A DNA stretch of 64,000 bases from an uncultured Candidatus Saccharibacteria bacterium (GTDB lineage Bacteria > Patescibacteriota > Saccharimonadia > UBA4664 > CAZJNH01): assembly GCA_964478595.1 (NCBI GenBank), contig CAYZIN010000004.1, forward strand, positions 557-64,556, in the 5' to 3' direction. A program made the translations under genes and the position numbers. The notes beneath the pieces were generated by a model. It had not been told where the DNA came from and made no database searches. It saw nothing but the letters and a program-made list of their open reading frames with translations. Below, piece by piece: positions 1-46,725 of the stretch. Within the stretch, counting starts at the first letter, position 1; each line of letters begins with the position of its first letter.

Positions 1-1778
1 AAGGTCAGCGAGATCTTGTTTTTGTCCTTGTTGTCTAGCTGGTTGGTTTGGGTTTTAAGCTGCGACCAGTTATCGCCATTGGAATTGTAGCGAACGATGC
101 TAACCGTTTTGTATTTGCCGACCTTTTTTGCCTCCGGATAGGCCGCAACGTTAATCGGTTTTTTGAACGAGTTAAACTGGCTGCCGTCCTGGGTTTTGCA
201 CGCAAGTTGGTATGGGCCATACATTAGAAGCAGCGGCTTTAGTCCCTTGAGACTTTGGTTATTGTCCGAGTTAATCACAATCGAACAACTGGCGGCAGCG
301 TCTAGGGAGCCAACCGGTAAAGTGGCTCGAATAATTCCGTCGGGACTGGAGATTAGCGTACCTTCGGCGGTGGCCTTAAACTCACCGGTCGTGATATTGG
401 TTTTAGCGTATCCCGAAGCGTTACCGGAGTTATCAACCGCCTTCACGCGATAGAAATAAGCGGTCTTGTAGGCCGTGGTGGCATCGGTAAATTGGGCCGT
501 GGTTAAACTCGACGACAGTGTAACCCACTTGGTTTGATCCAGCGACCGTTCGATTTGGTAGCCCTTTAGCCCACTACCGCCGGTATCGGCCGACGCCGAC
601 CAGGACAACATTACAATCGATTTGTCCGCACCAAGAACAGCTTTGAAATTACCGGGGATACTCGGCGCCGTGGTGTCGTTAACATGAGTACCACCGCCGT
701 TATTTCTACCACCGCCATTGTTACCGCCTCCAGTCGGCGGCTTCGGGCAGGTGGAATTGTCGGTACCGGCACCGCAACCGTGGGGCGGGGGTGGCGGACA
801 GGTCGAATTATCGGTGCCCGGGCCACACCCATGGGGCGGAGGCGACGCAGTAACATTCACCGTCACACTTTTAGTAGCGCTATTACCTCCTGAATTGGTA
901 CAAAACAACGTGTAGGTTTTATTACCTAAAGTGCTGCCAACATTCACAGCCGTACCAGTACTTGAAGTCGGTTTCGATCCGGTCCACGAATTGCCGGCAG
1001 TACAGCTCGTAGGGCTGTTGGTGGCCGACCATCTAAATGTCACATTGGTGCTCTGCTGGGCGGAGGCCGAGCTGGAGTTATTGACGGTAAACGTCACCAC
1101 CGGTGCAGGCGGCAAAGTAGGCGCACTAACTTTTACTGTCCGGGTGGTTTCGAAATGCCAAATGTCGTTACCGCAGTACAGGTCAAAAGTATAAGTCCCG
1201 GCTACGTTTGAAGCGTGATGGTCTTCGTCGCCATTGGCTGGTTTGTTGCCAGACCAGTTTGTCGTTGGAGTCCTAACCGTACAGCTGTCGGTCGTTGAGC
1301 TGGTGCGCCAACTAAAGTGCATGATTTGGTTGGTCGTAGCATTGGCCGGAGTGCCGCCGTAGGTACAGTTACCGGCAACGCAAAAACTGGTGATATAAAC
1401 CTTGGCGGTTTCGCGGTTAATACTGGCCCAAGTTTGCGAGCCAACCACACCGTCGGGCGACAACCCGTGACCCCGCTGATAAGCAGCTACGGCGTTTTGA
1501 GTTTGAGAACCGAAGATGCCGTCTTGGGTCAGATTATTACTCGAATACATATCCAAATCCCACTGTAGATACTGGACACAGGCTCCAGAGCTGCCATTCT
1601 GGAGAGTCGGATAGTTTGTGCAGGTATAGGGATTCCCGTTATCGGTGTTAGCGAAAATAGATTTAGCGACGTAACCAACGGTAATCGCCAACGCCGCCAC
1701 CAACAGCAGATTTACAAAAGTAAAACGGCGACGAGTGCGCACCAGCTCTTTATGATGGGGATGATACTTGGCTGGCAT
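1..1778 (-). CDS. Large surface/secreted protein, 5' part only. The ORF runs off the window start. It has an N-terminal hydrophobic signal or anchor, a PG_binding_1-like peptidoglycan-binding domain, Ig-like modules, a duplicated Cys motif (PPPHGCGxGTDNSTCP, two copies) and an FN3-like domain.
   Basis: Manual minus-strand translation from the ATG at 1778..1776 stays open to position 3, with codon low-coordinates on multiples of 3. It is absent from the ORF track, presumably because no stop falls in the window. The peptidoglycan-binding motif reads CVQYLQWDLDMYSSNNLTQDGIFGSQTQNAVAAYQRGHGLSPDGVVGSQTW. The FN3-like stretch reads APSIPGNFKAVLGADKSIVMLSWSASADTGGSGLKGYQIER...YFYRVKAVDNSGN. The plus-strand ORFs 163..1568 are the antisense frames of this gene. 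Confidence 0.6.
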   Translation of the reverse strand, partial: MPAKYHPHHKELVRTRRRFTFVNLLLVAALAITVGYVAKSIFANTDNGNPYTCTNYPTLQNGSSGACVQYLQWDLDMYSSNNLTQDGIFGSQTQNAVAAYQRGHGLSPDGVVGSQTWASINRETAKVYITSFCVAGNCTYGGTPANATTNQIMHFSWRTSSTTDSCTVRTPTTNWSGNKPANGDEDHHASNVAGTYTFDLYCGNDIWHFETTRTVKVSAPTLPPAPVVTFTVNNSSSASAQQSTNVTFRWSATNSPTSCTAGNSWTGSKPTSSTGTAVNVGSTLGNKTYTLFCTNSGGNSATKSVTVNVTASPPPHGCGPGTDNSTCPPPPPHGCGAGTDNSTCPKPPTGGGNNGGGRNNGGGTHVNDTTAPSIPGNFKAVLGADKSIVMLSWSASADTGGSGLKGYQIERSLDQTKWVTLSSSLTTAQFTDATTAYKTAYFYRVKAVDNSGNASGYAKTNITTGEFKATAEGTLISSPDGIIRATLPVGSLDAAASCSIVINSDNNQSLKGLKPLLLMYGPYQLACKTQDGSQFNSFKKPINVAAYPEAKKVGKYKTVSIVRYNSNGDNWSQLKTQTNQLDNKDKNKISLT

Positions 1779-1824: not shown

Positions 1825-2640
1825 TTACTTGGTTCGTTTAGCCGCTTTGAGCCATCGCTCTTTGCGAGCTTGTTCCGCCTCATGCGCCAAGGCCTGCCCG
1901 AGGCTGCCGCGATAACGCCTGATCAGTTCGAAATCCCAAACCAACGCAATCAAAACAATAACGTATAGCCAGACACGCGAATCCAAATACGAAGCTTTTT
2001 CGTAAGCTGCAAACCCAAGTAGCAATCCAATCCACCCTATTACTTGAGTTTTCAGTAAAACTGCGCCGCTAACCTTAGCCGCAGCGGTCGATCCGCGATA
2101 TCTTTTCGACAATACCAATCGGTAGATCCAACCGCCTACCACTACCGCCGCGAATAGCCCGGCCAAAATAAATATTTCGGTTCGGTTTGGGCTGGCGCTT
2201 AAAAAGTGAAACTGCTTTTGCAGCCTGGTGGTATTAAATAACACCGCCATCACCAGACCCAATCCTATTCCGCCCACTACCTCAGTCGGTGTGTGACCTT
2301 TAAGATACCCCTTTGGTTCGGGCGGCAAATTCAAATGTCCGGTCAATTTCCGCAGTAAAATCGCATGTTCGCCGGCCATCCGCCGAACTCCCAAGGCGTC
2401 ATACATGACGATTCCAGCCAGTACCGCCGTCACGCCAAACTCCGGGCTCGTCGGCCCGTTTAAGATCAAAGCCACGGTTGTTAGCGAAGTTACGACCGCC
2501 GAATGAGCGCTGGGCATTCCGCCCGACACATACATCATCCGCCAATCGATATCACCCCTAATTGCTCGCACCATGAACTTCAGCACCTGCGCCACCAACC
2601 ACGCCGCAAACGGTACCACTAAATACAAACTACTCTTCAT
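1825..2640 (-). CDS. Divergent PAP2 / DUF212 (YuiD-like, acid phosphatase/vanadium haloperoxidase-related) membrane protein with an extra C-terminal multi-TM extension
   Basis: N-terminus MKSSLYLVVPFAAWLVAQVLKFMVRAIRGDIDW...GGMPSAHSAVV is typical of DUF212. Several hydrophobic segments follow. Confidence 0.6.
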   Translation of the reverse strand: MKSSLYLVVPFAAWLVAQVLKFMVRAIRGDIDWRMMYVSGGMPSAHSAVVTSLTTVALILNGPTSPEFGVTAVLAGIVMYDALGVRRMAGEHAILLRKLTGHLNLPPEPKGYLKGHTPTEVVGGIGLGLVMAVLFNTTRLQKQFHFLSASPNRTEIFILAGLFAAVVVGGWIYRLVLSKRYRGSTAAAKVSGAVLLKTQVIGWIGLLLGFAAYEKASYLDSRVWLYVIVLIALVWDFELIRRYRGSLGQALAHEAEQARKERWLKAAKRTK

Positions 2641-2821: not shown

Positions 2822-5065
2822 CTAGTTCTTGTGAGCTCTAACTTTGCGTTCAATCCCTAGCAGCGCACCCGAACCGAGTAGTAGTAGCGCCATAACCCCA
2901 AACAACAGGCCGAGTTTGTTGGCAGCTTTTTTATTTGCGGAGATATTCGGCACATTACTAGCTGCTGCGATCGAGATGTTGCCGGATGACTGGTTGGTGT
3001 TGTTGGTTGTGACTTGAGCGGATCCCCCGCTCGGAGCTGGGTAGTAAATAGCGCTGGTCGAGGTCGGACCATTTGTGGTTGGAATCGTTCCCCCACCCAC
3101 TGCGGCGGCGTTGCCGGCTGCGGTGTCTTGGCCCACGCTCCCGAACCAGTTACCAAAGACGTTGACTACCAATACCCCGAACCAGTGTTTCAAGTTTAGG
3201 TGGCTGCCCAGAATGTTTACCACGTTTGCCGCCACGCCAGCATTACCGGAAGTTGCCGATCCAGCGTTGGTGTTTCGCGTGACTGAGGCGTCACCGGAGA
3301 TGGCACCGGCGTTGATGTTGTTGTTGATGGTGCTAGTTGGAGAGTAGTTAACGTCGAGGTTACCGTTGGTTGAGCTTGAGGCGTTGTTGGTCGAACCTGG
3401 ACCGGTACCATTATTAGAAACCGTTGTATTACCGCCAAGCAGACCAGATTGGCTTCCGCCAGTCGAAGGCAGGTTCAAGATCGCTCCCATCCAGTGACCA
3501 AGCACATTGACCAAAACCAGTACTGCGTTGTCGCCAACCACGCTTTCGTTGTCGAGATTATAGGTGTTGGTATTGGTCGTCGCATTACCGGTTGTGGCGG
3601 CGCCTGCAATAGTATTTTGGTCGACGTTCGCGTCGCCAGACTGAGCACCGGTTCGGAGATTGTTATTGAAGGTCGATTGCGAAGTGTCGGTTATGTTGCC
3701 CGTTAGGTTTGAGCTTGAGTTGGCGGTGTTGTTTGAACCGGCGCCTGTGTTGGTGTTAGAAGCCGTGGCTGAGGATCCGCCCCCCGTGCCGCTCGCTCCG
3801 CCATTGCCGCCGATTAGGCTGTCTAAAAAGCCAGCTGGGAATAAGATGTCGCCGTTAAGGTCGCCGAAGATATTCACCATGCCGAAGAACGAACCGCCGG
3901 CGCCGATGGCTGAATTGATCATGTTAACGAGATTTAGCTCGACTGCCGCATCACCGGTTTTGGCGTTGCCGGCGTTGGTGTTGGCGTCGATGTTGGCGTT
4001 GCCGGACTGAGCCAAAAGGTCGATATTGTTGGTGATACTGCCATTGGGCTGATAGTTGACCGTCAAATCTTTATTAGCATTGGTTTGGGCCGTGTTTTGT
4101 GAGTTCGGGCCAGTATTACTATTCGAATCGAGTACGCCGCTAAAGCAGAAGTAGCAACCAATTCCGCCGCCGCCGCTGCCCGACATGGTCGGGTTCAGCG
4201 TAACGTCCCCGGTGTGATTGCCGAAGATGTTATCAACGAAGTAAGCCAGTGTGCCGCTCCCCCAGGTCCAACCCGAGTTAATCAAGTTTAGGAAGTTGGA
4301 AACTACATTTGCCATACCGGTCGAGGCGTCGCCGGCGTTGGTGTTGTTGGTAACGTTAGCATCGCCGGTTGTGGAGGTCGAAGTTTGGCCGTTAGTTATG
4401 CTTGCCAGTGCCAAGATGTTAAACAGCGCACTGGCGTTGTTATTGAGTATCGCGTTGTTAACACTGTTGGGACCGGTGTTGGAGTTGGATGGGTCGATGC
4501 CGAGCAGGGCGGCCAGTTTGGCTTTGGTTGAATCGGATGAGGCACCGACTAACATTGGGTCGTTAGCGGCAATGCCTGTGGCTTGCCCGCCGACTCCGGC
4601 ACTGCCGGAAACTTCGGGGGCGTAGTTAACGTAATACCAGCCGCTGCGCGAATCGTAGCTGTAGTAAGGACTTAGCCAGTTGCCGCTGGCGCTATCCCAG
4701 TAGAAGCTGGCCTGATTGGTGGCCACCCAAGTGCCCGTCTTGGAATCGAAGGCGTAGGTCGGGATAGGGCCAGTCGGCTTAGTGGGGCCTGTAGGCTGAG
4801 TCGGCCCAGTAGTGGTTGTTGGCCCAGTCGTTGATGCTGGTTGCGTAGTAGTTGAAGGATCGGTCGGAGTAGTCGTCGACGGATCGGTTGCGGTTGTCGT
4901 TGAAGGATCGGTCGATTGGGTAGTTGAAGGATCTGGAGTGGTCGAGGATTGGGTCGTGTCGGTAGGAGTGGTGGTATCGTCGGCCAAAACTAAGGCTGGC
5001 ATTGCCAAGACACTCAGCATGACCGCGATAATGGTGCTAGATAAAATTTGCTTTAGCTTTTTCAT
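2822..5065 (-). CDS. Large secreted, anchored repeat protein (747 aa). It has a signal peptide, a Thr/Pro-rich mucin-like linker and about four ~70-aa Asn/Gly/Ser/Thr-rich repeat modules (SGDANVxxNTNAGxAxTG ... NVVN.LG..LNL..WFG..VVNVFGNWFG), then a C-terminal TM with an RK tail.
   Basis: Canonical signal peptide MKKLKQILSSTIIAVMLSVLAMPALVLA. The repeats are visible in the translation. C-terminus is KLGLLFGVMALLLLGSGALLGIERKVRAHKN. Antisense plus-strand ORFs (e.g. 4251..4625) are artefacts. Confidence 0.75.
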   Translation of the reverse strand: MKKLKQILSSTIIAVMLSVLAMPALVLADDTTTPTDTTQSSTTPDPSTTQSTDPSTTTATDPSTTTPTDPSTTTQPASTTGPTTTTGPTQPTGPTKPTGPIPTYAFDSKTGTWVATNQASFYWDSASGNWLSPYYSYDSRSGWYYVNYAPEVSGSAGVGGQATGIAANDPMLVGASSDSTKAKLAALLGIDPSNSNTGPNSVNNAILNNNASALFNILALASITNGQTSTSTTGDANVTNNTNAGDASTGMANVVSNFLNLINSGWTWGSGTLAYFVDNIFGNHTGDVTLNPTMSGSGGGGIGCYFCFSGVLDSNSNTGPNSQNTAQTNANKDLTVNYQPNGSITNNIDLLAQSGNANIDANTNAGNAKTGDAAVELNLVNMINSAIGAGGSFFGMVNIFGDLNGDILFPAGFLDSLIGGNGGASGTGGGSSATASNTNTGAGSNNTANSSSNLTGNITDTSQSTFNNNLRTGAQSGDANVDQNTIAGAATTGNATTNTNTYNLDNESVVGDNAVLVLVNVLGHWMGAILNLPSTGGSQSGLLGGNTTVSNNGTGPGSTNNASSSTNGNLDVNYSPTSTINNNINAGAISGDASVTRNTNAGSATSGNAGVAANVVNILGSHLNLKHWFGVLVVNVFGNWFGSVGQDTAAGNAAAVGGGTIPTTNGPTSTSAIYYPAPSGGSAQVTTNNTNQSSGNISIAAASNVPNISANKKAANKLGLLFGVMALLLLGSGALLGIERKVRAHKN

Positions 5066-5157
5066 TGTTTCCTACCCCTCGTTTAGTTGCTTCTGGATTA
5101 TTTCGGGATTGGGCCCGAAGGCCCGCTCCCTTAACACCGCTCAAGAACTAGAGTCAA

Positions 5158-5736
5158 CTAGAAGCTGACGGTAGTGGTCGAGTTGCTGGTGTTGTTTGCG
5201 CTACCAGTGGAAGCGCTGCCGGCGTTGGTGTTGTTGGTGACTGAAGCGTTGCCAGAAGTTGAGTTCTGGGTGTTGCTGTTGGTCACGTTAACATTCGCGG
5301 CGTTGGTGACGGTCAGAGTCTGGTCGTTGTTGAACGTCTCGTTGTTGTTCGAGTTCGCACCAGTTGTGCTGATCGTACCGTTGTTGTTGCTGCTAAAGAA
5401 GCCAGCCCAGTTCGTAGTACCTACACCAGCTCCGGACACGTTGGTCGAAGAGCTGTTGCTGTTGGTGGCTGATCCAGTAGTAGCGCTGCCGCCGTTGGTG
5501 TTAGAGTCAACGGTTGCAGTACCGGAGGTCGAGGTCTGGTTGTTAGTGTTAGAAACAGTGGCAGTCGGAACATTAGTAATGCTCGCGTTCTGCGTGTTAT
5601 TAACGGTCACCGTGTTAGTTGAAGTAGCACCGGTGTTCGAAATGGTTGCGCTGTTAGCAGCCGCCATTCCGATTCCAAGACCGACCGTAGCTAGAGCAAT
5701 CGCACTGTAGCGAAGTAAAGATGTTTTCATCCTCAC
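5158..5736 (-). CDS. Secreted Asn/Thr/Ser-rich repeat protein (192 aa). It shares a conserved ~70-aa N-terminal module (ISNTG..NT..V.N....I.N.P....V.NTN.Q.(T/A)TSG.A.V..NTN.GSA..G.A.N) with the genes at 6325..6954 and 39056..39886.
   Basis: Signal peptide MRMKTSLLRYSAIALATVGLGIGMAAA. Motif GNASVTNNTNAGSASTGSANN. No C-terminal anchor. Confidence 0.65.
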   Translation of the reverse strand: MRMKTSLLRYSAIALATVGLGIGMAAANSATISNTGATSTNTVTVNNTQNASITNVPTATVSNTNNQTSTSGTATVDSNTNGGSATTGSATNSNSSSTNVSGAGVGTTNWAGFFSSNNNGTISTTGANSNNNETFNNDQTLTVTNAANVNVTNSNTQNSTSGNASVTNNTNAGSASTGSANNTSNSTTTVSF

Positions 5737-5856
5737 ATTCTCCTTTCTTATTTATTTAGTTAATGTTTTTCGGGCTTGGCCCGCCCCGCATCTTTCTCTG
5801 CCAAGACGCCGGGTGGACCAAGTCCTGGAACATTTCACTTAAGTTGTTAATTCGCA

Positions 5857-6318
5857 CTAGTTCGAAACCGAGATACTGCCTTCACCGCTTTGGAACGCTG
5901 AAACACTATTGTCGTTGCGAACAAAGCTGAAGGTGCCTCCTCCGGTCGAGACGAAACTGTTGCTCGAGCCGGTTGAGGAGTTGGACTGAACCGTGATCGT
6001 AACCGATCCATCTGGGTGGCCGATCGTACTGGTCCCGCCTGACGTAAAGCTACTAGTGGAATTTCCACTCACGCTTACGCTAACTGCAGGCGTTTGGACC
6101 TGCGCTGGCGCTTGGCCATTTAGATCGATTCCCACTCCGTTGACCGTTACCTCCGGTTGCTCAGTTGTTAGAACCTGGCCAACCAAAACTTGGTCGGAGT
6201 TGGCACTAATGTCATGAGCAATCCTGGCCTGGCTAGCGACCGCGGCCGCCGCAAGAGCTGCGGCGACGGTCAGAGCCAGAGTCAGTTGGATTGGTTTTAC
6301 TTTGAAAGTACTCATCAT
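5857..6318 (-). CDS. Small secreted Ser/Thr/Gly-rich protein (153 aa)
   Basis: Ala-rich signal peptide LTLALTVAAALAAAAVASQA. Low-complexity S/T/G body. Sits inside the repeat-protein cluster. Confidence 0.5.
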   Translation of the reverse strand: MMSTFKVKPIQLTLALTVAAALAAAAVASQARIAHDISANSDQVLVGQVLTTEQPEVTVNGVGIDLNGQAPAQVQTPAVSVSVSGNSTSSFTSGGTSTIGHPDGSVTITVQSNSSTGSSNSFVSTGGGTFSFVRNDNSVSAFQSGEGSISVSN

Positions 6319-6324
6319 CCCTCC

Positions 6325-6954
6325 TTAGAGGCTGCGTTCCTTACGCACCGCGTAAACCGCGCTGCCAGCTGCCCCCAGCAAGCTCATTAGAGCCGCTGCG
6401 GCTAGCAATCCGGCGCTGAGTCCGCGTGTGTGGTTAACCGCTGCCAAATCTTGACTGCCGTTACCAAGCACTCGGCGCAAAGCCGAAACGTCGATGACTC
6501 CGGATGCACCAGTGGCCGGCAACATACCGCCGCCGACGCCACCAGCGCCGCCAGTAGTAGCTAGGGCCAATGCACCGCCGCCGACGCCACCCGAAAGACT
6601 TCCACCGCCTCCCGGTAAGCTGCCGCCGCCAAGTCCACCGCCAATACCGCTGCCGTTAATACTAGTCACAAAGCTGTTGTTGTTACTGGCTGACCCAGTT
6701 GAAGCACTTCCAGCGTTGGTGTTGTTGGTGACATTGGCGTCACCGCTAGTTGCAGTCTGGTCGTTGGTGTTGTCAACGGTCGTAGTTGGAGTATTAACAA
6801 TCGTTGAGGTCTGGTCGTTGCTAATCGTAGTTGTGTTGGTCGAACCTGAACCAGTGTTTGAAATACTGGCGCTGTTGTCGGCCAAAGCACTCATCGGAAC
6901 AGCACTCATAAGACCTGCAATCGCTATACTCGCTACTAATCGTTTTGCAATCAT
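6325..6954 (-). CDS. Secreted repeat-family protein (209 aa). It has a Gly-rich segment and a C-terminal LPATG ... ALRRVL ... TM ... RKERSL region.
   Basis: Signal peptide MIAKRLVASIAIAGLMSAVPMSALA. N-terminal module homologous to 5158..5736 and 39056..39886. The LPATG motif lies about 30 aa before the TM rather than directly before it. Confidence 0.65.
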   Translation of the reverse strand: MIAKRLVASIAIAGLMSAVPMSALADNSASISNTGSGSTNTTTISNDQTSTIVNTPTTTVDNTNDQTATSGDANVTNNTNAGSASTGSASNNNSFVTSINGSGIGGGLGGGSLPGGGGSLSGGVGGGALALATTGGAGGVGGGMLPATGASGVIDVSALRRVLGNGSQDLAAVNHTRGLSAGLLAAAALMSLLGAAGSAVYAVRKERSL

Positions 6955-7839
6955 TTACATCCACCTCCCTTCTTTCCCTATTAGTTGTTTGGTATCTGAC
7001 GCCACAATAAACACAGGCGCAGCCCCTTTGGGACCGGCCTGTATTTCCACGCGTGGTGTAGCAAAAGAAAGGAGAGAAGAACCCGAAGCGTCACTGCGAG
7101 GAGCGTGCTGGAAACCGCTGCGACGTAGGTATGTCATAAAGCTTGAAGTAATTAGGAGCAGGACCGCCAGCCAAGCAATGCTGCCCTGGCTAGGCAAAAC
7201 GTTCCGTAAAGCTGCGAGGCGCAGGGCCATGCCTCGGCCGAAACCGCCGCCTGAACCACTTGCAGCTGGGGCCACCGAACCGGTTGGACCAGTCGGTGCC
7301 GGCAAGCTTTTGTTATTGTCCTGAACCGGGGCAATAGGAGTCGGTTGATTAGCTGAATGATTTAGGGCGATTGGCGTCTGGGGGTTTTGGGTGGCCGGAA
7401 TAGCCAAGTTAACCACCCTGCCGTTGCCGTCGGTGTAGTTGGTTGGCGTGTTTGCAGATGAGGTCAAAGTAGTTGGAGAGCTTACGGCAGAATCCGCCGT
7501 AGATGCCGGAGCCGTAGTGGCTGACTCGCCCGTTGGCGATACCGGAGCTGACGAAGTTTTAACGTCTGAAACTGTGTTGGTTTGATCAGTAGTGGAGGTG
7601 TCCACCGACTGAGATGATTGCTGATCGTTTTCGACCTGAATAGTCGAACCGGAGTCGTTAGTAACCTGAACTTGGGAGGTCGATTTAGTTTCAACGGTTG
7701 AGCCGGGGTCGGTGTCAGCATGAGCTAGGCCGCGAACCATTAAGGTTGCGACTAAGACTGAGAGTGCAGTAACACCAAATTTGGCGAAACCTAGTTTTCT
7801 CAACACTTCCCTCAAATTAAAAATGTCTCCCCACCACAA
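6955..7839 (-). CDS. Ser/Thr-rich secreted or anchored protein (294 aa; start uncertain). Its C-terminal LPAPTG ... ALRNVL ... TM ... RRSG region resembles that of 6325..6954.
   Basis: Hydrophobic segment KFGVTALSVLVATLMVRGLAHA followed by an S/T/Q-rich body. C-terminal TM IAWLAVLLLITSSFMTYL plus RR. Confidence 0.5.
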   Translation of the reverse strand: MWWGDIFNLREVLRKLGFAKFGVTALSVLVATLMVRGLAHADTDPGSTVETKSTSQVQVTNDSGSTIQVENDQQSSQSVDTSTTDQTNTVSDVKTSSAPVSPTGESATTAPASTADSAVSSPTTLTSSANTPTNYTDGNGRVVNLAIPATQNPQTPIALNHSANQPTPIAPVQDNNKSLPAPTGPTGSVAPAASGSGGGFGRGMALRLAALRNVLPSQGSIAWLAVLLLITSSFMTYLRRSGFQHAPRSDASGSSLLSFATPRVEIQAGPKGAAPVFIVASDTKQLIGKEGRWM

Positions 7840-8020: not shown

Positions 8021-10572
8021 TTACTTTTCTTCTATTTGAGTCTGAGCCGGGTCGTCGGGTACTTCTTCAACTTTTTCTTCGATTTGCTTTTCGGCAATCA
8101 AAGCTACGGAGGCTACCTTATCACTTTCGTTAAGCTTCATAATCCTAACGCCCTGAGTAGCTCGGCTAATTAATGAGATCTTCTTCAGCGGGGTTCGAAT
8201 AACCTGCCCTTGAGTTGAAACAGCCACCAGATCGTCCTCGATGCTAGTAATCGCCCGTACATCAACGATCTTACCGGTCTTGGGTGTAACAACTCCAGCT
8301 TTAATGCCTACCCCGCCGCGATTGTGAGTCGCGAACTGGCTAATCGGCGTTCGTTTGCCATAACCGTTCTCGCTAACAACCAGGAGCTGACTTTCGGGCA
8401 TGGCCACGTCGGCCCCTACCACCGTGTCTCCGGTTCGCAAGCGAATACCACGAACTCCTCTTGTCGCCCGACCCATCGGACGGGCATCTGACTCCTTAAA
8501 GCGGATCGACTGGGCCATCATCGTTGAAATAATAATCTCGTTCTTGCCGCTGGTGAGTTTGACCCACTTCAGCTCGTCCCCTTTGTCGAGCTTAATGGCG
8601 ATCAGACCCGATGAACGAACGTTAGTATAATCCTTAAGCGGGGTTTTCTTTACGGTTCCCATCTTGGTCGTCATAAACAGGTAGCATTCTTCGGGCATGT
8701 TGTCCTTTTCGAGCGTCACGAGCGATGTGACTTTCTCGTCCGGGGCTAACTGAAGCAGGTTCACGATCGGTGAGCCTTTGGCTGTGCGTGACGCCGGCGG
8801 AATTTCGTGGACTTTGAGCCGAAAAACCCGACCCATATTAGTGAAAAACAGCACAAAGTCGTGGTTTTGAGTTAGCACCAAATGCTCAACCACATCCTCT
8901 TCCTTTGTAACCATGCCAATAATGCCTTTACCGCCGCGGCCTTGAGATTTATAGGTGTTGGACGGCACGCGCTTGATGTAGTTGCCGGTGGTGAGGGTTA
9001 CAATTACCTGTTCGTTGGGAATTAGTTCTTCTTCGCTGAATTGGTCTAACTCGGTAGCGATAATCTGCGTTCGGCGCTTGTCGGCGAACTTTTCTTTTAG
9101 CTCAATCAATTCTTCCTTAATAACCCGCAAGATTTCGTTGGGATCGGCCAGAATTTTTTCCAGTTTGGCGATCAGCTTAATTAGCTCCGCCAATTCATCT
9201 TCAACTTTTTTACGCTCTAGGCCCGCCAGACTGCGCAGTTGCATTGCCAAAATCGCTTTGGCCTGAGGCTCGGTCAGTTTGAATTTCTTGATTAAGTTCG
9301 TCTGAGCCTCTTCGGTGGTCCGGCTGGCGCGGATTGTGGCAATAACTTCGTCGATATGATCCAGCGCAATCTTTAAACCTTCCAAAATATGGGCTCGGTC
9401 TTTAGCTTTGCCTAATTCAAATTCGGTGCGGCGCCGCACTACCGTCTGACGGTGCTTGATGTACTCCCGCAGGATCATTTCTAAAGACAAGATGCGCGGC
9501 TGAATGCCATCAACCAGCGCTAACATATTAACGTGGAAGGCCGTTTGCATTGGCGTCCACTTATAAAGCTGGTTCAAAATTTTATTAGGGTATGAATCCT
9601 TTTTCAGATCGACGACGATTTTAACTCCATCACGCGAGCTTTCATCGCGCAAGTCGGAGATACCTGTCAGGCGCTTTTCCTTAACCAGATCGGCAATCTT
9701 TTCGACTAAAGCGGCTTTGTTAACCGCGTAGGGAATTTCGGTAACCACAATCTGGAAGTCGCCCTTTTTTCCTTCTACTATCTCGGCTACGGCTCGTACC
9801 ACAATACTGCCCTTGCCGGTACCGTAAGCCTGGCCAATAGCGGTTTTACCGTAAATCACTCCCCCAGTCGGAAAATCTGGGCCTTTTATAAATTTCATTA
9901 GATCGGTAGCCGTTGCCTCGGGGTTTTCGATTAAGTGCGTAATGCCGTCAACCACCTCGCCTAAATTGTGCGGCGGGATATTGGTGGCCATACCTACGGC
10001 AATACCCATTTGGCCATTTAAAAGTATGTTTGGTAATTTGGCTGGCAAAACGACCGGTTCCCGCTGGGAGCCATCATAGTTGGGCCGGAAATCCACCGTT
10101 TCTTTATCGATGTCATAAAGCAGCTGTTCGGCAATCGAGCTCATTCTGGCTTCGGTATAACGCGGAGCGCCTGGCGGGTCGCCGTCCATCGAACCGAAGT
10201 TACCTTGACCATCAACCAGCGGGTAGCGCATCGAGAAATCCTGGGCCATGCGGGCCATGGTGTCGTAAATTGCAGCGTCGCCGTGCGGGTGATATTTACC
10301 CATGACTTCCCCGACGACGGTGGCGCTCTTACGGTATTTGGCCGCGTGACGCAGCCCCATGGTGTTCATGGCATGCAAAATCCGGCGGTGGACTGGCTTT
10401 AAGCCATCCCGAACATCTGGCAACGCCCGAGCCACAATCACACTCATCGCGTAATCGAGGTAGCTGGTTTCCATTTCGGACTCAATTGTCCGAATCATCA
10501 CACCGTCAACTACCTGGTTGGGCTCCGGCGGGGTTGGCTGTTCGAAATTTAACTGTCCATTGTCTTCGTCCA

Positions 10573-10573
<1 letters not shown>
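8021..10573 (-). CDS. gyrA: DNA gyrase subunit A
   Basis: Full-length GyrA. Motifs include AAMRYTE-like GKYHPHGD and the active-site Tyr region. The ATG at 10573 overlaps the gyrB TGA by 1 nt; the tool start at 10576 is a TTG. Confidence 0.95.
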
Positions 10574-12648
<2,075 letters not shown>

Positions 12649-29692: not shown

Positions 29693-29768
29693 TGGTCGGG
29701 GTGGCGGGACTCGAACCCACGGCCTCACGCACCCGAAGCGTGCGCGCTACCAACTGCGCCACACCCCG
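29693..29768 (-). tRNA. tRNA-Pro (anticodon CGG), CCA encoded
   Basis: Manual cloverleaf: acceptor CGGGGTG/CACCCCG, D-arm GCGC-AGTTGGTA-GCGC, anticodon stem CACGC/GCGTG with loop TTCGGGT (anticodon CGG, G37), T-arm GTGGG-TTCGAGT-CCCGC, discriminator A then CCA. The plus-strand ORF 29675..30004 overlaps it and is spurious. Confidence 0.85.
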
Positions 29769-39055: not shown

Positions 39056-39886
39056 ATGAGGCGACTTTTACTTCGCTACGCCATTCCGGCAGTAGCAGCC
39101 TTAGGATTAAGCGGCACGATGCTGGCCGCGAGTACAATAACAATAACGAACACTGGATCGGGGTCTAACAACAGCGCCAGTGTCAGCAATAACAGCACAC
39201 TGACCCTAGTTAATACGCCCAACGGGGTTGTGATTAACACGAATAACCAAGGCGCTACCTCGGGCACAGCCAACGTCAGCGGTAACACCAACGGCGGGAG
39301 TGCAGTTTCGGGAGGTGCGAACAATAACAATAATGGCTCAACGGTCGTAACCTTTGGTAGTGGCTTTACGATTGCCGGCGGTGGCGGCGGATCAAACAGT
39401 GCCACTATCTCAACCACCGGGCCGGGTTCGAATAACCAAATTACTATCAGCGGTAACAGCACGGCCACGATCATTAATGCGCCAAATGTTAACGTCACCA
39501 ACTCCAATAGCCAAAACGCTTCTTCTGGTTCGGCTAACGTTAGTAACAACACCAACGGTGGAAGCGCAGTTAGTGGATCGGCCGGGAATACTAACTCAAG
39601 TAGCACTACTGTTAGTGCCAGTGCGCCAACGATCACTTTGCCTGGCGGTGGCGGATCAAATAGCGCGACTATCGCAACCACCGGGCCGGGTTCGAATAAC
39701 CAGGTTTCGATTAGCGCTAACCAGAACCTGACCGTGACTAACGTCCCGACAGCAAACGTTACCAATACCAACACTCAAACCGCCAATTCCGGCACAGCCA
39801 ATGTTTCCGGTAATACCAACGCTGGCAGCGCCGTCTCTGGAAGCGCCAATAACTCAAACAGCACAAGCACCAGTATCTCAATCTAA
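39056..39886 (+). CDS. Secreted Asn/Thr/Ser/Gly-rich repeat-family protein (276 aa). Paralog of the 2.8-7.8 kb cluster, with internal ~270-nt-spaced intragenic repeats.
   Basis: Signal peptide MRRLLLRYAIPAVAALGLSGTMLAA. GGAGGG RBS. Repeated module GGGGSNSATI(S/A)TTGPGSNNQ... and SG.ANVS.NTNGGSAVSGSA. The antisense ORF 39076..39774 is rejected. Confidence 0.7.
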   Translation: MRRLLLRYAIPAVAALGLSGTMLAASTITITNTGSGSNNSASVSNNSTLTLVNTPNGVVINTNNQGATSGTANVSGNTNGGSAVSGGANNNNNGSTVVTFGSGFTIAGGGGGSNSATISTTGPGSNNQITISGNSTATIINAPNVNVTNSNSQNASSGSANVSNNTNGGSAVSGSAGNTNSSSTTVSASAPTITLPGGGGSNSATIATTGPGSNNQVSISANQNLTVTNVPTANVTNTNTQTANSGTANVSGNTNAGSAVSGSANNSNSTSTSISI

Positions 39887-46139: not shown

Positions 46140-46171
46140 AAAAGCACCCGAACCGTAGTTCTGGTGCTTTT
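46140..46171. terminator. Bidirectional hairpin AAAAGCACC...GGTGCTTTT
   Basis: 9-bp stem flanked by A-runs and T-runs on both sides. Confidence 0.45.
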
Positions 46172-46725
46172 GGTGGAGCTGCGGGGAATTGCACCCCGGT
46201 CCGCGAGATAACGCTTCAGGCTACTACAGGCTTAGTCCGTTTGATTTGTTTCTTTTCCAAACCGCCACACAAGCGAACAAAGATAGCGATTCGGAGCAGC
46301 CCAAATCTTAGCGACGAGTTAGGGCAAGCTCATCGAGCAACCAACTAAATGGCGCCGGATTAACCTAGTTGGCGTCGGTTAAAAGGCGGCTTTCGAACTT
46401 AAGCGAAAGCGGGTACTAAATCGTTGCGAGTTAGTAAGGTTGCCTATAACGCTGGCAAGCGGCCTGCAACACTGAAGTGTCAAAGTCCCACGTCGAAGCT
46501 GATCAGCCCCTCATCGTCGCAGCTACCTCCAGCTTACGCAAGATTTGCTTGCTGCAGCTTACCGGTGCTGCTCCTCTCGGCTCGTCAAACAGTCGTTTCA
46601 CTCCTTCGGATTGACTCGCCGGGAATCACATTGAGCTCGAGTATTCTAGCAAAATATTGTGGATTTTTCAACGCCGCCGGTGTAGAATACCGGCGCGTTA
46701 TTCGAACGAGTACCAAGGAGAGAAA

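Follow-up and report, generated by a model that had tools for sequence, protein, structure and literature searches.

The chaplins of Streptomyces (ChpA-H) are small secreted paralogs, each with a short module present once or twice; some of them are sortase-anchored, and the others are free and thought to assemble on the anchored ones. A set of similar layout is encoded in a Saccharibacteria (Saccharimonadia) genome, within a stretch of 64,000 nucleotides that was analyzed as a whole (contig CAYZIN010000004.1; hereafter the window). It comprises a cluster of five genes, encoding the proteins p747, p192, p153, p209, and p294, and an unlinked gene for p276. Four of these proteins (p747, p192, p209, and p276) share a module with a core of ~75 amino acids (aa), which p747 extends by a hydrophobic hairpin. 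The chaplin domain differs in being ~40 aa long, hydrophobic, and amyloid-forming, with two Cys, whereas the module described here has ~75 aa, a polar or mixed face, and a predicted antiparallel fold; the small proteins contain no Cys. Moreover, unlike in the chaplins, the single-module protein is the anchored one, and a membrane-anchored four-module protein is added to the set.

Curli (CsgA/CsgB) likewise consist of imperfect repeats rich in Asn, Gln, Gly, Ser, and Ala, with a surface-tethered paralog beside the secreted major subunit. However, curli repeats span ~19-23 aa with the pattern S-x5-Q-x-G-x-G-N-x-A-x3-Q and form a parallel beta-solenoid, in contrast to 75 aa (97 with the hairpin) and a predicted antiparallel arrangement here. 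Curli also need the outer-membrane secretion genes CsgG/E/F of diderms, whereas the organism studied here has a Gram-positive-type envelope with a sortase. A preliminary description of the locus had found the repeats reminiscent of curlin; this likeness is not borne out, as the repeat is 75 aa long instead of ~22 and none of the six proteins matches Curlin_rpt. The Chaplin profile of Pfam and the TasA family gave no match either (maximum E-value 1, with the HMMER filters removing most matches above ~0.1).

Elongated modules with long three-stranded sheets, conserved Gly turns, and little hydrophobic core are known from the G5-E rods of SasG and Aap, wall-anchored, self-associating LPXTG proteins of staphylococci. 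SasG repeats differ in that they occur only within one long anchored chain and not as free two- or three-module proteins; no Pfam match to G5 and no Foldseek match to a PDB chain was found. Sortase pili of the SpaA type share with the locus the clustering of genes for related secreted subunits and, in one clade of relatives (clade 2 below), a dedicated sortase beside the LPXTG member. In this case, the presumed major subunit p192 has no LPXTG motif and p276 has no Lys, which makes covalent sortase polymerization through a pilin-motif lysine impossible, and Pfam detects neither pilin nor CnaB/Ig families. Finally, TasA and TapA of Bacillus combine a secreted fiber subunit and a wall-associated anchoring or nucleating partner in one operon. 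They differ in showing no sequence or fold match, in their SipW-type signal peptidase, whose gene is not in the cluster, and in lacking the repeat-based architecture seen here.

By analogy, the set may be said to resemble chaplins and curli in logic and G5-E rods in shape, but it does not have the features that would place it in any of these families. We propose, with a probability of roughly 45%, that the set is specific to Saccharimonadia and that its modules pair with one another and so tie the free subunits to the anchored ones in an envelope coat or fiber.

The module family and its distribution

To define the module, a hidden Markov model (HMM) was built from the four repeats of p747 and iterated over the fetched relatives, yielding 1476 module instances. 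It locates ten modules in four window proteins (p747, 4; p276, 3; p192, 2; p209, 1), and their domain E-values lie between 1e-17 and 1e-31. Translating the window in all six frames reveals no copy beyond these ten, and no module is present in p153 (E 0.65) or p294 (E 2.5). Whereas four of the five cluster genes, together with the unlinked one, had been thought to share modules, the paralogy extends to p747, p192, p209, and p276, and p294 falls outside it. The small proteins p192, p209, and p276 are mutually 50-59% identical in blastp comparisons and ~30-38% identical to several regions of p747. Comparison of the p192 and p747 family profiles (probability 99.3%, E 8e-21) shows that this similarity reflects homology, beyond shared composition. 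The p747 repeat, first given as ~70 aa, is longer: the HMM unit covers ~97 residues at a spacing of ~115-120 and comprises the ~75-aa core plus the hydrophobic hairpin.

The impression that the proteins belong to no named family was confirmed. Pfam and NCBIfam scans of all six returned sub-threshold noise only, PDB sequences gave nothing at E <= 1 with the profiles of the p192 and p747 families, and Foldseek, run with the p747 model on PDB and BFVD, gave no significant match (the best PDB match, the amyloid protein FapC, has E 1.6 and meaningless TM-scores). Homologs are named "hypothetical protein" in their sources, except for one JGI entry labeled "trimeric autotransporter adhesin", and the family is not described in the literature searched, including Wang et al. 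2023. The module family is new to Pfam and NCBIfam, in a setting that is familiar: surface proteins of the Gram-positive type, anchored by sortase or in the membrane, together with free paralogs.

Members of the family are numerous. The p192 profile retrieved 2156 cluster representatives (50% identity) at E <= 1e-3, of which 1256 are at <= 1e-10; a homolog search with a profile of the 75-aa module, performed through a word index, gave a single match. For p747, 343 close homologs were collected, nearly all of 650-800 aa (mostly ~700-770), and relatives occur in at least 235 species genomes when one genome per species is scanned. Among the 80 of these 235 genomes that were listed, nearly all are metagenome-assembled genomes of Saccharibacteria, Saccharimonadia, or Patescibacteria. 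By exact sequence, p747 is present in a collection of 15 billion proteins, from which p192 (taken from the ATG at 5730), p209, p153, and p276 are absent.

Surveying ~520 distinct module proteins, we found four major architectures: four modules with the hairpin, nearly all followed by a C-terminal membrane helix (~180 proteins), two plain modules, in most cases with no residues after the second (~190), one module with LPXTG and a helix (~54), and three plain modules (~55). Proteins with five, six, or ten modules are rare, and a Pfam search for fused domains in ten atypical multi-module relatives found nothing. The coexistence of anchored and unanchored members, remarked on from the window alone, thus recurs as the same division across hundreds of homologs. 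We consider it very likely that the family exists as delineated, that it is located at the envelope, and that it has these architectures. Four proteins of a distant branch (P0232, P0265, P0305, and P0308) are built from 6-10 strongly acidic repeats, each ~88 aa long and bearing the motif NTG.N.AS.NTGDG.V.SGDA, and have no Pfam match; judging from these sequences, the superfamily may extend beyond the architectures in this window.

Fold and faces of the module

Along its sequence, the module runs from a short strand through an NTGPxSxN loop, two long strands with a tight turn, SGxA, a further short strand, and a GNTxGG loop to a long strand, which in p747 is followed by the hydrophobic hairpin. 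Mean-field direct coupling analysis (DCA) of 908 distinct core modules (Meff 830) revealed one long antiparallel ladder with i+j = 103 (pairs 48-57, 44-60, 41-62, 39-64, 37-66, 35-70, 33-72, 31-72, and 27-76; z up to 9.7), as well as contacts linking the NTGP loop with the GNT loop. The ladder recurs when 309 modules of the small proteins are used alone, and the small modules therefore have the fold of the p747 modules, which AlphaFold models confidently, with two-residue turns connecting the strands. Together, these data indicate that the module is a three-stranded antiparallel sheet, a meander closed by the NTGPxSxN and GNTxGG loops. The beta-solenoid suggested at the outset is contradicted within the module by the ladder, which holds for the full set of modules as well as for those of the small proteins, and by the two-residue turns of the p747 model; stacking between subunits lies outside the reach of these methods. 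For p192 itself, a monomer prediction from 23 sequences reproduced the strands at low confidence (mean pLDDT 41.6, pTM 0.31); the AlphaFold check proposed for this protein was carried out and is uninformative on a beta-solenoid either way.

The fold also bears on whether the proteins are functional amyloids of the curli, chaplin, or TasA type, in which p192 would form cross-beta fibers, p209 would act as nucleator, and p747 as a second nucleator. Such a system would suit the composition of p192 and p276 in this genome, with 55-64% Asn+Thr+Ser and ~13-16% large hydrophobic residues, as well as the weak p192 model, and the anchored and free paralogs would mirror CsgB/CsgA and the long and short chaplins; FapC, the non-significant top match of the Foldseek search, is itself an amyloid. 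Yet the antiparallel coevolution within the small modules is as strong as that of p747, arguing for a defined native fold, DCA gives no sign of a parallel in-register solenoid within the module, and the known amyloid families are not matched, as described above. Nor is the prion-like composition conserved: charged residues amount to 1.8% in p192 and 0% in p276, whose mature form has no Lys, Arg, Asp, or Glu, but to a median of 11% and a maximum of 31% among 130 two-module homologs. The uncharged Asn/Thr/Ser composition is thus a peculiarity of this genome and not a family trait. We regard amyloid fibers as very unlikely, and the amyloid-like character first ascribed to the proteins as disfavored by a defined, coevolving fold and an unconserved composition.

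Per-position statistics of the small modules show a strict alternation of conserved and hypervariable positions, which defines two faces of the sheet. The conserved face comprises I15, V23, V25, N27, N29, V31, V33, N35, N37, Q39, and A41 on two strands and A62, N64, N66, T68, T70, V72, V74, and N76 on the third; its entropy is ~1.2-1.8 bits, and ~0% of its residues are charged. On the opposite face, the corresponding values are 3.0-3.7 bits and 13-42%. Polar positions of the conserved face are hydrophobic in p747 (37 Ile, 64 Val, 68 Leu, 71 Leu, and 76 Ile), and coevolution links the p747 hairpin, at positions 87-95, to positions 35, 66, and 72 of this face. Most simply, the hairpin would shield the conserved face in cis in p747, and this face would stay open in the small proteins; we infer that capping is what sets the large protein apart from the small ones. 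Between species, acidic content ranges from 0 to 24% in p192 and from 3 to 11% in p747 modules, and the wide range of p192 fits an exposed, freely varying outer face.

A conserved face opposite a hypervariable one is also what a binding site would look like, and the Asn/Gln/Thr/Val face could bind a glycan, either a polymer of the cell's own wall, to which p192 and p276 would attach, or the wall of a host bacterium. Saccharibacteria live attached to Actinobacteria and have essential glycan-binding adhesins (PMC10633639), which lends this explanation some support, as do the envelope genes neighboring the locus in relatives (a PG_binding_1 protein, a GT2 glycosyltransferase, and a sortase). Against it, the hydrophobic hairpin would cover the same face in p747 and so exclude binding there, the small modules have no aromatic platform typical of glycan-binding sheets, Pfam reveals no similarity to any carbohydrate-binding family, and the face is too conserved over very different habitats for host specificity. 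Glycan binding therefore appears quite unlikely as the role of this face.

Two further roles were considered and rejected. Thr-Gln ester or Lys-Asn isopeptide cross-links do not fit p276, in which catalytic residues of the Lys, Asp, Glu, or His type are absent, and p747 does not keep the Gln; ice binding is not supported, as the strand faces are not kept as TxT/TxN arrays and the family occurs in many habitats. Three relatives of the three-module p276 (P0123, P0135, and P0166) carry a Trp-rich insertion of ~60-90 residues (..SWDP..W..QW..) in the GNT tip loop of one module, so this loop would be exposed and able to accept insertions.

The AlphaFold model of p747, computed from a 55-sequence alignment with invariant Gly/Asn/Trp columns, has a mean pLDDT of 66 overall, with values of 85-96 in the four module cores. 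The aromatic domain between the Thr/Pro-rich stretch and the modules is also well modeled (pLDDT ~90), while the Thr/Pro region and the spacer before the anchor are disordered; the C-terminal hydrophobic segment (residues 714-740) is predicted as a helix from 707 to 746. Both the Thr/Pro-rich linker and the hydrophobic stretches ending in ...VNVFGNWFG, pointed out early on in p747, are real and conserved in the 55 homologs. The aromatic domain contains TGxW / YxYD repeats with an invariant Trp113, and Pfam gives only sub-threshold hits to OCRE (E 0.007) and DUF6330; it could be a candidate ligand-binding tip.

Gene order, anchors, and possible assembly

Homologous clusters, which the preliminary description had suggested looking for in related genomes, were found, and 82 loci were compared. 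In 73 of them, a two-module gene of ~193 aa lies directly upstream of the p747 homolog, and most of the exceptions have no upstream sequence. Clade 1, whose 36 loci include the window, has the order gyrB-gyrA-[p294]-p209-[p153]-p192-p747-DUF212-[PG-binding protein]. Clade 2 shows p192-p747, followed by GT2-sortase-p209 on the opposite strand; the p209 gene thereby adjoins both a sortase gene (Pfam Sortase, E 7.8e-18) and the GT2 glycosyltransferase gene.

Within the window, p294, p209, and p153 follow one another in the same direction, 0 and 6 nt apart, whereas spacers of 120 and 92 nt isolate p192, each with a GC-rich stem-loop. The spacer between the two-module and four-module genes has a median length of 112 nt. 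Hairpins of <= -12 kcal/mol occur in 91% of 69 p192-p747 spacers, compared with 12% of shuffles and 27% of p747-DUF212 spacers; ahead of p192-like genes, 10 of 11 homologous spacers also contain a hairpin that reaches this threshold. The clade 1 spacer hairpin is directly followed by a conserved GCA[A/C]T[T/C]ATC, of which the window has a degenerate copy (GAAATAATCC); elsewhere in the window, this motif (GCAMTYATC) is not enriched. RNAalifold yielded no consensus structure for the MAFFT-aligned p192-p747 spacers, because the stems vary in length and sequence. The p192-p747 stem-loop may act as a terminator of an unusual kind, mark a processing site, or stabilize the transcript, and it would point to differential expression or transcript stabilization of the two-module gene. 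Since stem-loops set the p192 gene off and it precedes p747, p192 is probably the abundant component.

The open reading frame (ORF) of p192 as mechanically called starts at GTG. Two codons downstream lies ATG 5730, 10 nt after AAGGAG, which matches the homolog N-termini (MK...) and is probably the true start, giving a protein of 190 aa. The anchor of p209, overlooked before, is an LPATG sorting signal: the protein fits the definition of an LPXTG wall anchor, with the motif, a hydrophobic segment, and a positively charged tail, and is a predicted sortase substrate. LPxTG is found in 33 of 50 p209 relatives, most of the others having LPxVG. The other clade has a textbook LPXTG-helix-RR signal. 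In the window's clade (relatives in loci L003-L042), LPx[TV]G is followed by a conserved P.DVSALR stretch, and the spacer that leads to the helix is unusual, with ~25-30 residues. Sequence beyond a sortase cleavage site is usually not conserved, and we know of no sortase motif with Val at the Thr position.

Set against this background, the proposed assembly would proceed as follows. Uncapped modules would pack against one another and so bury their conserved faces. Fixed to the wall, the one-module p209 would be a cap or starting point, the released two-module p192 a chain extender, and the released three-module p276 a brancher, so that the three would build a coat or short fibers on the wall with their hypervariable faces outward. 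Beside this coat, p747 would stand as a membrane-anchored rod, with the aromatic domain and the Thr/Pro brush at its far end. The fiber of secreted subunits on anchored bases imagined in the preliminary description is compatible with the gene layout; assembly of the proteins themselves is a step that we infer.

Several observations weigh against this proposal. The structure predictions of p747 and p192 are of monomers only, and an intramolecular sandwich of the two p192 modules, which would leave no free face for polymerizing, is a serious possibility. The conserved gene order may mean co-regulation alone, and the stem-loop between p192 and p747 has no U-tract. Across 73 genomes, the charge of p192 does not correlate with that of p747, and charge complementarity between the two was discarded for this reason. 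The Thr of LPXTG is lost in 17 of 50 p209 relatives, mostly to Val, so sortase processing is perhaps not universal, and no sortase gene was found within this 64-kb window. A further warning against inferring function from adjacency at this locus comes from DUF212, a divergent PAP2 gene. The cultured oral strain Southlakia epibionticum ML1 has gyrB, gyrA, and the divergent PAP2 gene side by side (Table S1, PMC10633639); the DUF212 adjacency is therefore probably old, inherited synteny with gyrA and uninformative on function. Accordingly, a functional link of DUF212 to the cluster was rejected, as gyrA and the PAP2 gene neighbor each other even without it. The five-gene surface cluster interrupts this otherwise conserved gyrA-PAP2 junction, with the gyrA/gyrB side at 8021..12633 (-).

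At the gyrA-PAP2 site of the oral S. epibionticum, and with respect to that site only, the cluster is missing (PMC10633639). This absence is among the points that speak against a true S-layer, in which p747, with or without p192, would form a two-dimensional paracrystalline lattice held by a C-terminal membrane helix, as in many archaeal S-layer proteins. Conservation of p747 over its full length (35-65% identity across the class) and the membrane helix that follows a low-complexity spacer would be in keeping with such a lattice. S-layers have been observed on other ultra-small cells of the candidate phyla radiation. At the same time, Pfam and NCBIfam show no SLH, CWB2, or other S-layer family match, and the literature searched describes no S-layer on Saccharibacteria. 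A true S-layer is accordingly very improbable.

Alternatively, these may be independent surface proteins that do not co-assemble, with the module as a rigid spacer or stalk comparable to the Ig-like, G5-E, and CnaB repeats of Gram-positive adhesins. The protein p747 would then be an adhesin that is anchored in the membrane and works through its distal aromatic mini-domain and the Thr/Pro brush, and the small proteins would act alone. That the p747 modules fold alone with high confidence, that the N-terminal aromatic domain with its invariant Trp is equally well predicted, and that one homolog bears the JGI adhesin label all agree with a stalk. This reading is harder to reconcile with ~245 stand-alone secreted proteins of two or three modules, many of which end exactly at the module end, an unusual arrangement for stalk domains. 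Likewise, the conserved, uncharged face of the small modules is uncovered and needs a partner, and the two- and four-module genes are almost invariably paired. Overall, a stalk without co-assembly is an unlikely explanation, and pairing between modules is the reading that we prefer.

Layout of the locus and meaning for Saccharibacteria

All six ORFs exist where they were first reported and on the same strands (Table 1), and each shows a putative secretion signal, judged by eye and by hydropathy from basic residues at the N-terminus, the hydrophobic stretch after them, and an AxA-like site.

Table 1. Positions of genes, modules, anchors, and stem-loops within the window
Feature	Positions	Strand	Remarks
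Membrane protein with peptidoglycan-binding domain	1..1778	-	first 592 aa in window; PG_binding_1, E 8.5e-14
DUF212 (divergent PAP2) membrane protein	1825..2640	-	Pfam PF02681, E 8.6e-36
p747	2822..5065	-	ORF; signal peptide, Thr/Pro-rich stretch, aromatic beta domain, four modules (putatively capped), spacer, C-terminal helix, basic tail
p747 C-terminal membrane helix	2858..2926	-	followed by basic tail
p747 module 4, residues 549-644	3134..3421	-	module HMM, domain E 2.8e-30
p747 module 3, residues 434-530	3476..3766	-	module HMM, domain E 3.9e-25
p747 module 2, residues 314-408	3842..4126	-	module HMM, domain E 1.3e-31
p747 module 1, residues 192-288	4202..4492	-	module HMM, domain E 1.5e-24; core plus hydrophobic hairpin
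p747 aromatic beta domain, residues 100-146	4628..4768	-	between Thr/Pro brush and modules
p747 Thr/Pro-rich stretch	4769..4981	-	
Stem-loop between p192 and p747	5105..5130	-	GC-rich, GGGAGCGGGCCTTCGGGCCCAATCCC; -19.2 kcal/mol
p192	5158..5736	-	ORF; signal peptide and two modules (putatively uncapped); C-terminus is module end
p192 modules	5434..5649 and 5170..5379	-	module HMM
Stem-loops upstream of p192	5771..5813	-	CCCGGCGTCTTGG...GCGGGG and CGGGCCAAGCCCG; -16.7 kcal/mol
p153	5857..6318	-	ORF; signal peptide or signal anchor and Ser/Thr-rich beta protein; no module
p209	6325..6954	-	ORF; signal peptide, one module (putatively uncapped), Gly-rich spacer, LPATG, spacer, membrane helix, RKERSL tail
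p209 membrane helix, residues 178-203	6346..6423	-	followed by RKERSL tail
p209 post-LPATG spacer, residues 150-177	6424..6507	-	~28 aa
p209 LPATG, residues 145-149	6508..6522	-	
p209 module	6649..6870	-	module HMM
p294	6955..7839	-	ORF; signal peptide, Ser/Thr/Pro-rich low-complexity region, membrane helix, cytoplasmic tail; no module
gyrA	8021..10576		flanks five-gene cluster opposite DUF212 gene
p276	39056..39886	+	ORF; signal peptide and three modules (putatively uncapped); no anchor; unlinked copy
p276 modules	39140..39349, 39401..39619, 39665..39877	+	module HMM

The two cluster genes without the module represent two separate small families confined to the window's clade. The accessory family of p153, limited to this clade, has 11 homologs in syntenic loci and a conserved V.VNG..V motif. 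For p294, six syntenic homologs were aligned; hydropathy places its membrane helix at approximately residues 214-232, and the family has a conserved cytoplasmic tail after the helix (RLRRSGF.HAPRSD....FATP; window 6955..7140, -).

Next to the cluster, the PAP2 protein of the window has an extra C-terminal membrane region of ~140 aa (271 aa compared with 142 aa). A homolog of the peptidoglycan-binding protein, ~680 aa long, is present at the same position in locus L001 and many other loci. Antisense ORFs at 5174..5710 (+), 6494..7324 (+), and 39076..39774 (-) were rejected as genes, being shadows of periodic composition; they would encode Leu/Val/Pro-rich products of 178, 276, and 232 aa, overlap the module genes, and have no support for gene status. 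The only Rfam matches in the window are a transfer-messenger RNA at 46171..46510 (-; 104.9 bits) and one tRNA at 29696..29768 (-).

A large part of uncultured bacterial diversity belongs to the Patescibacteria, among them the ultra-small Saccharibacteria, and these organisms attach to host bacteria. To our knowledge, hardly anything has been learned about their surface proteins beyond type IV pili. The genetic set described here, which combines membrane-anchored, sortase-anchored, and free proteins, is a testable candidate for an envelope coat or fibers, and the module provides a useful new domain definition for annotating Saccharibacteria and Patescibacteria genomes. More speculatively, and with the odds leaning against it, the capped and uncapped proteins could be a new self-assembly system that builds the outermost coat or fibrils of environmental Saccharibacteria, with a fold unrelated to solved structures and with valence (one, two, or three modules) setting the geometry of the network. 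If true, capped/uncapped pairing would be a simple new design principle for surface polymers, and the coat would be the surface that faces the host bacterium, phages, and predators.

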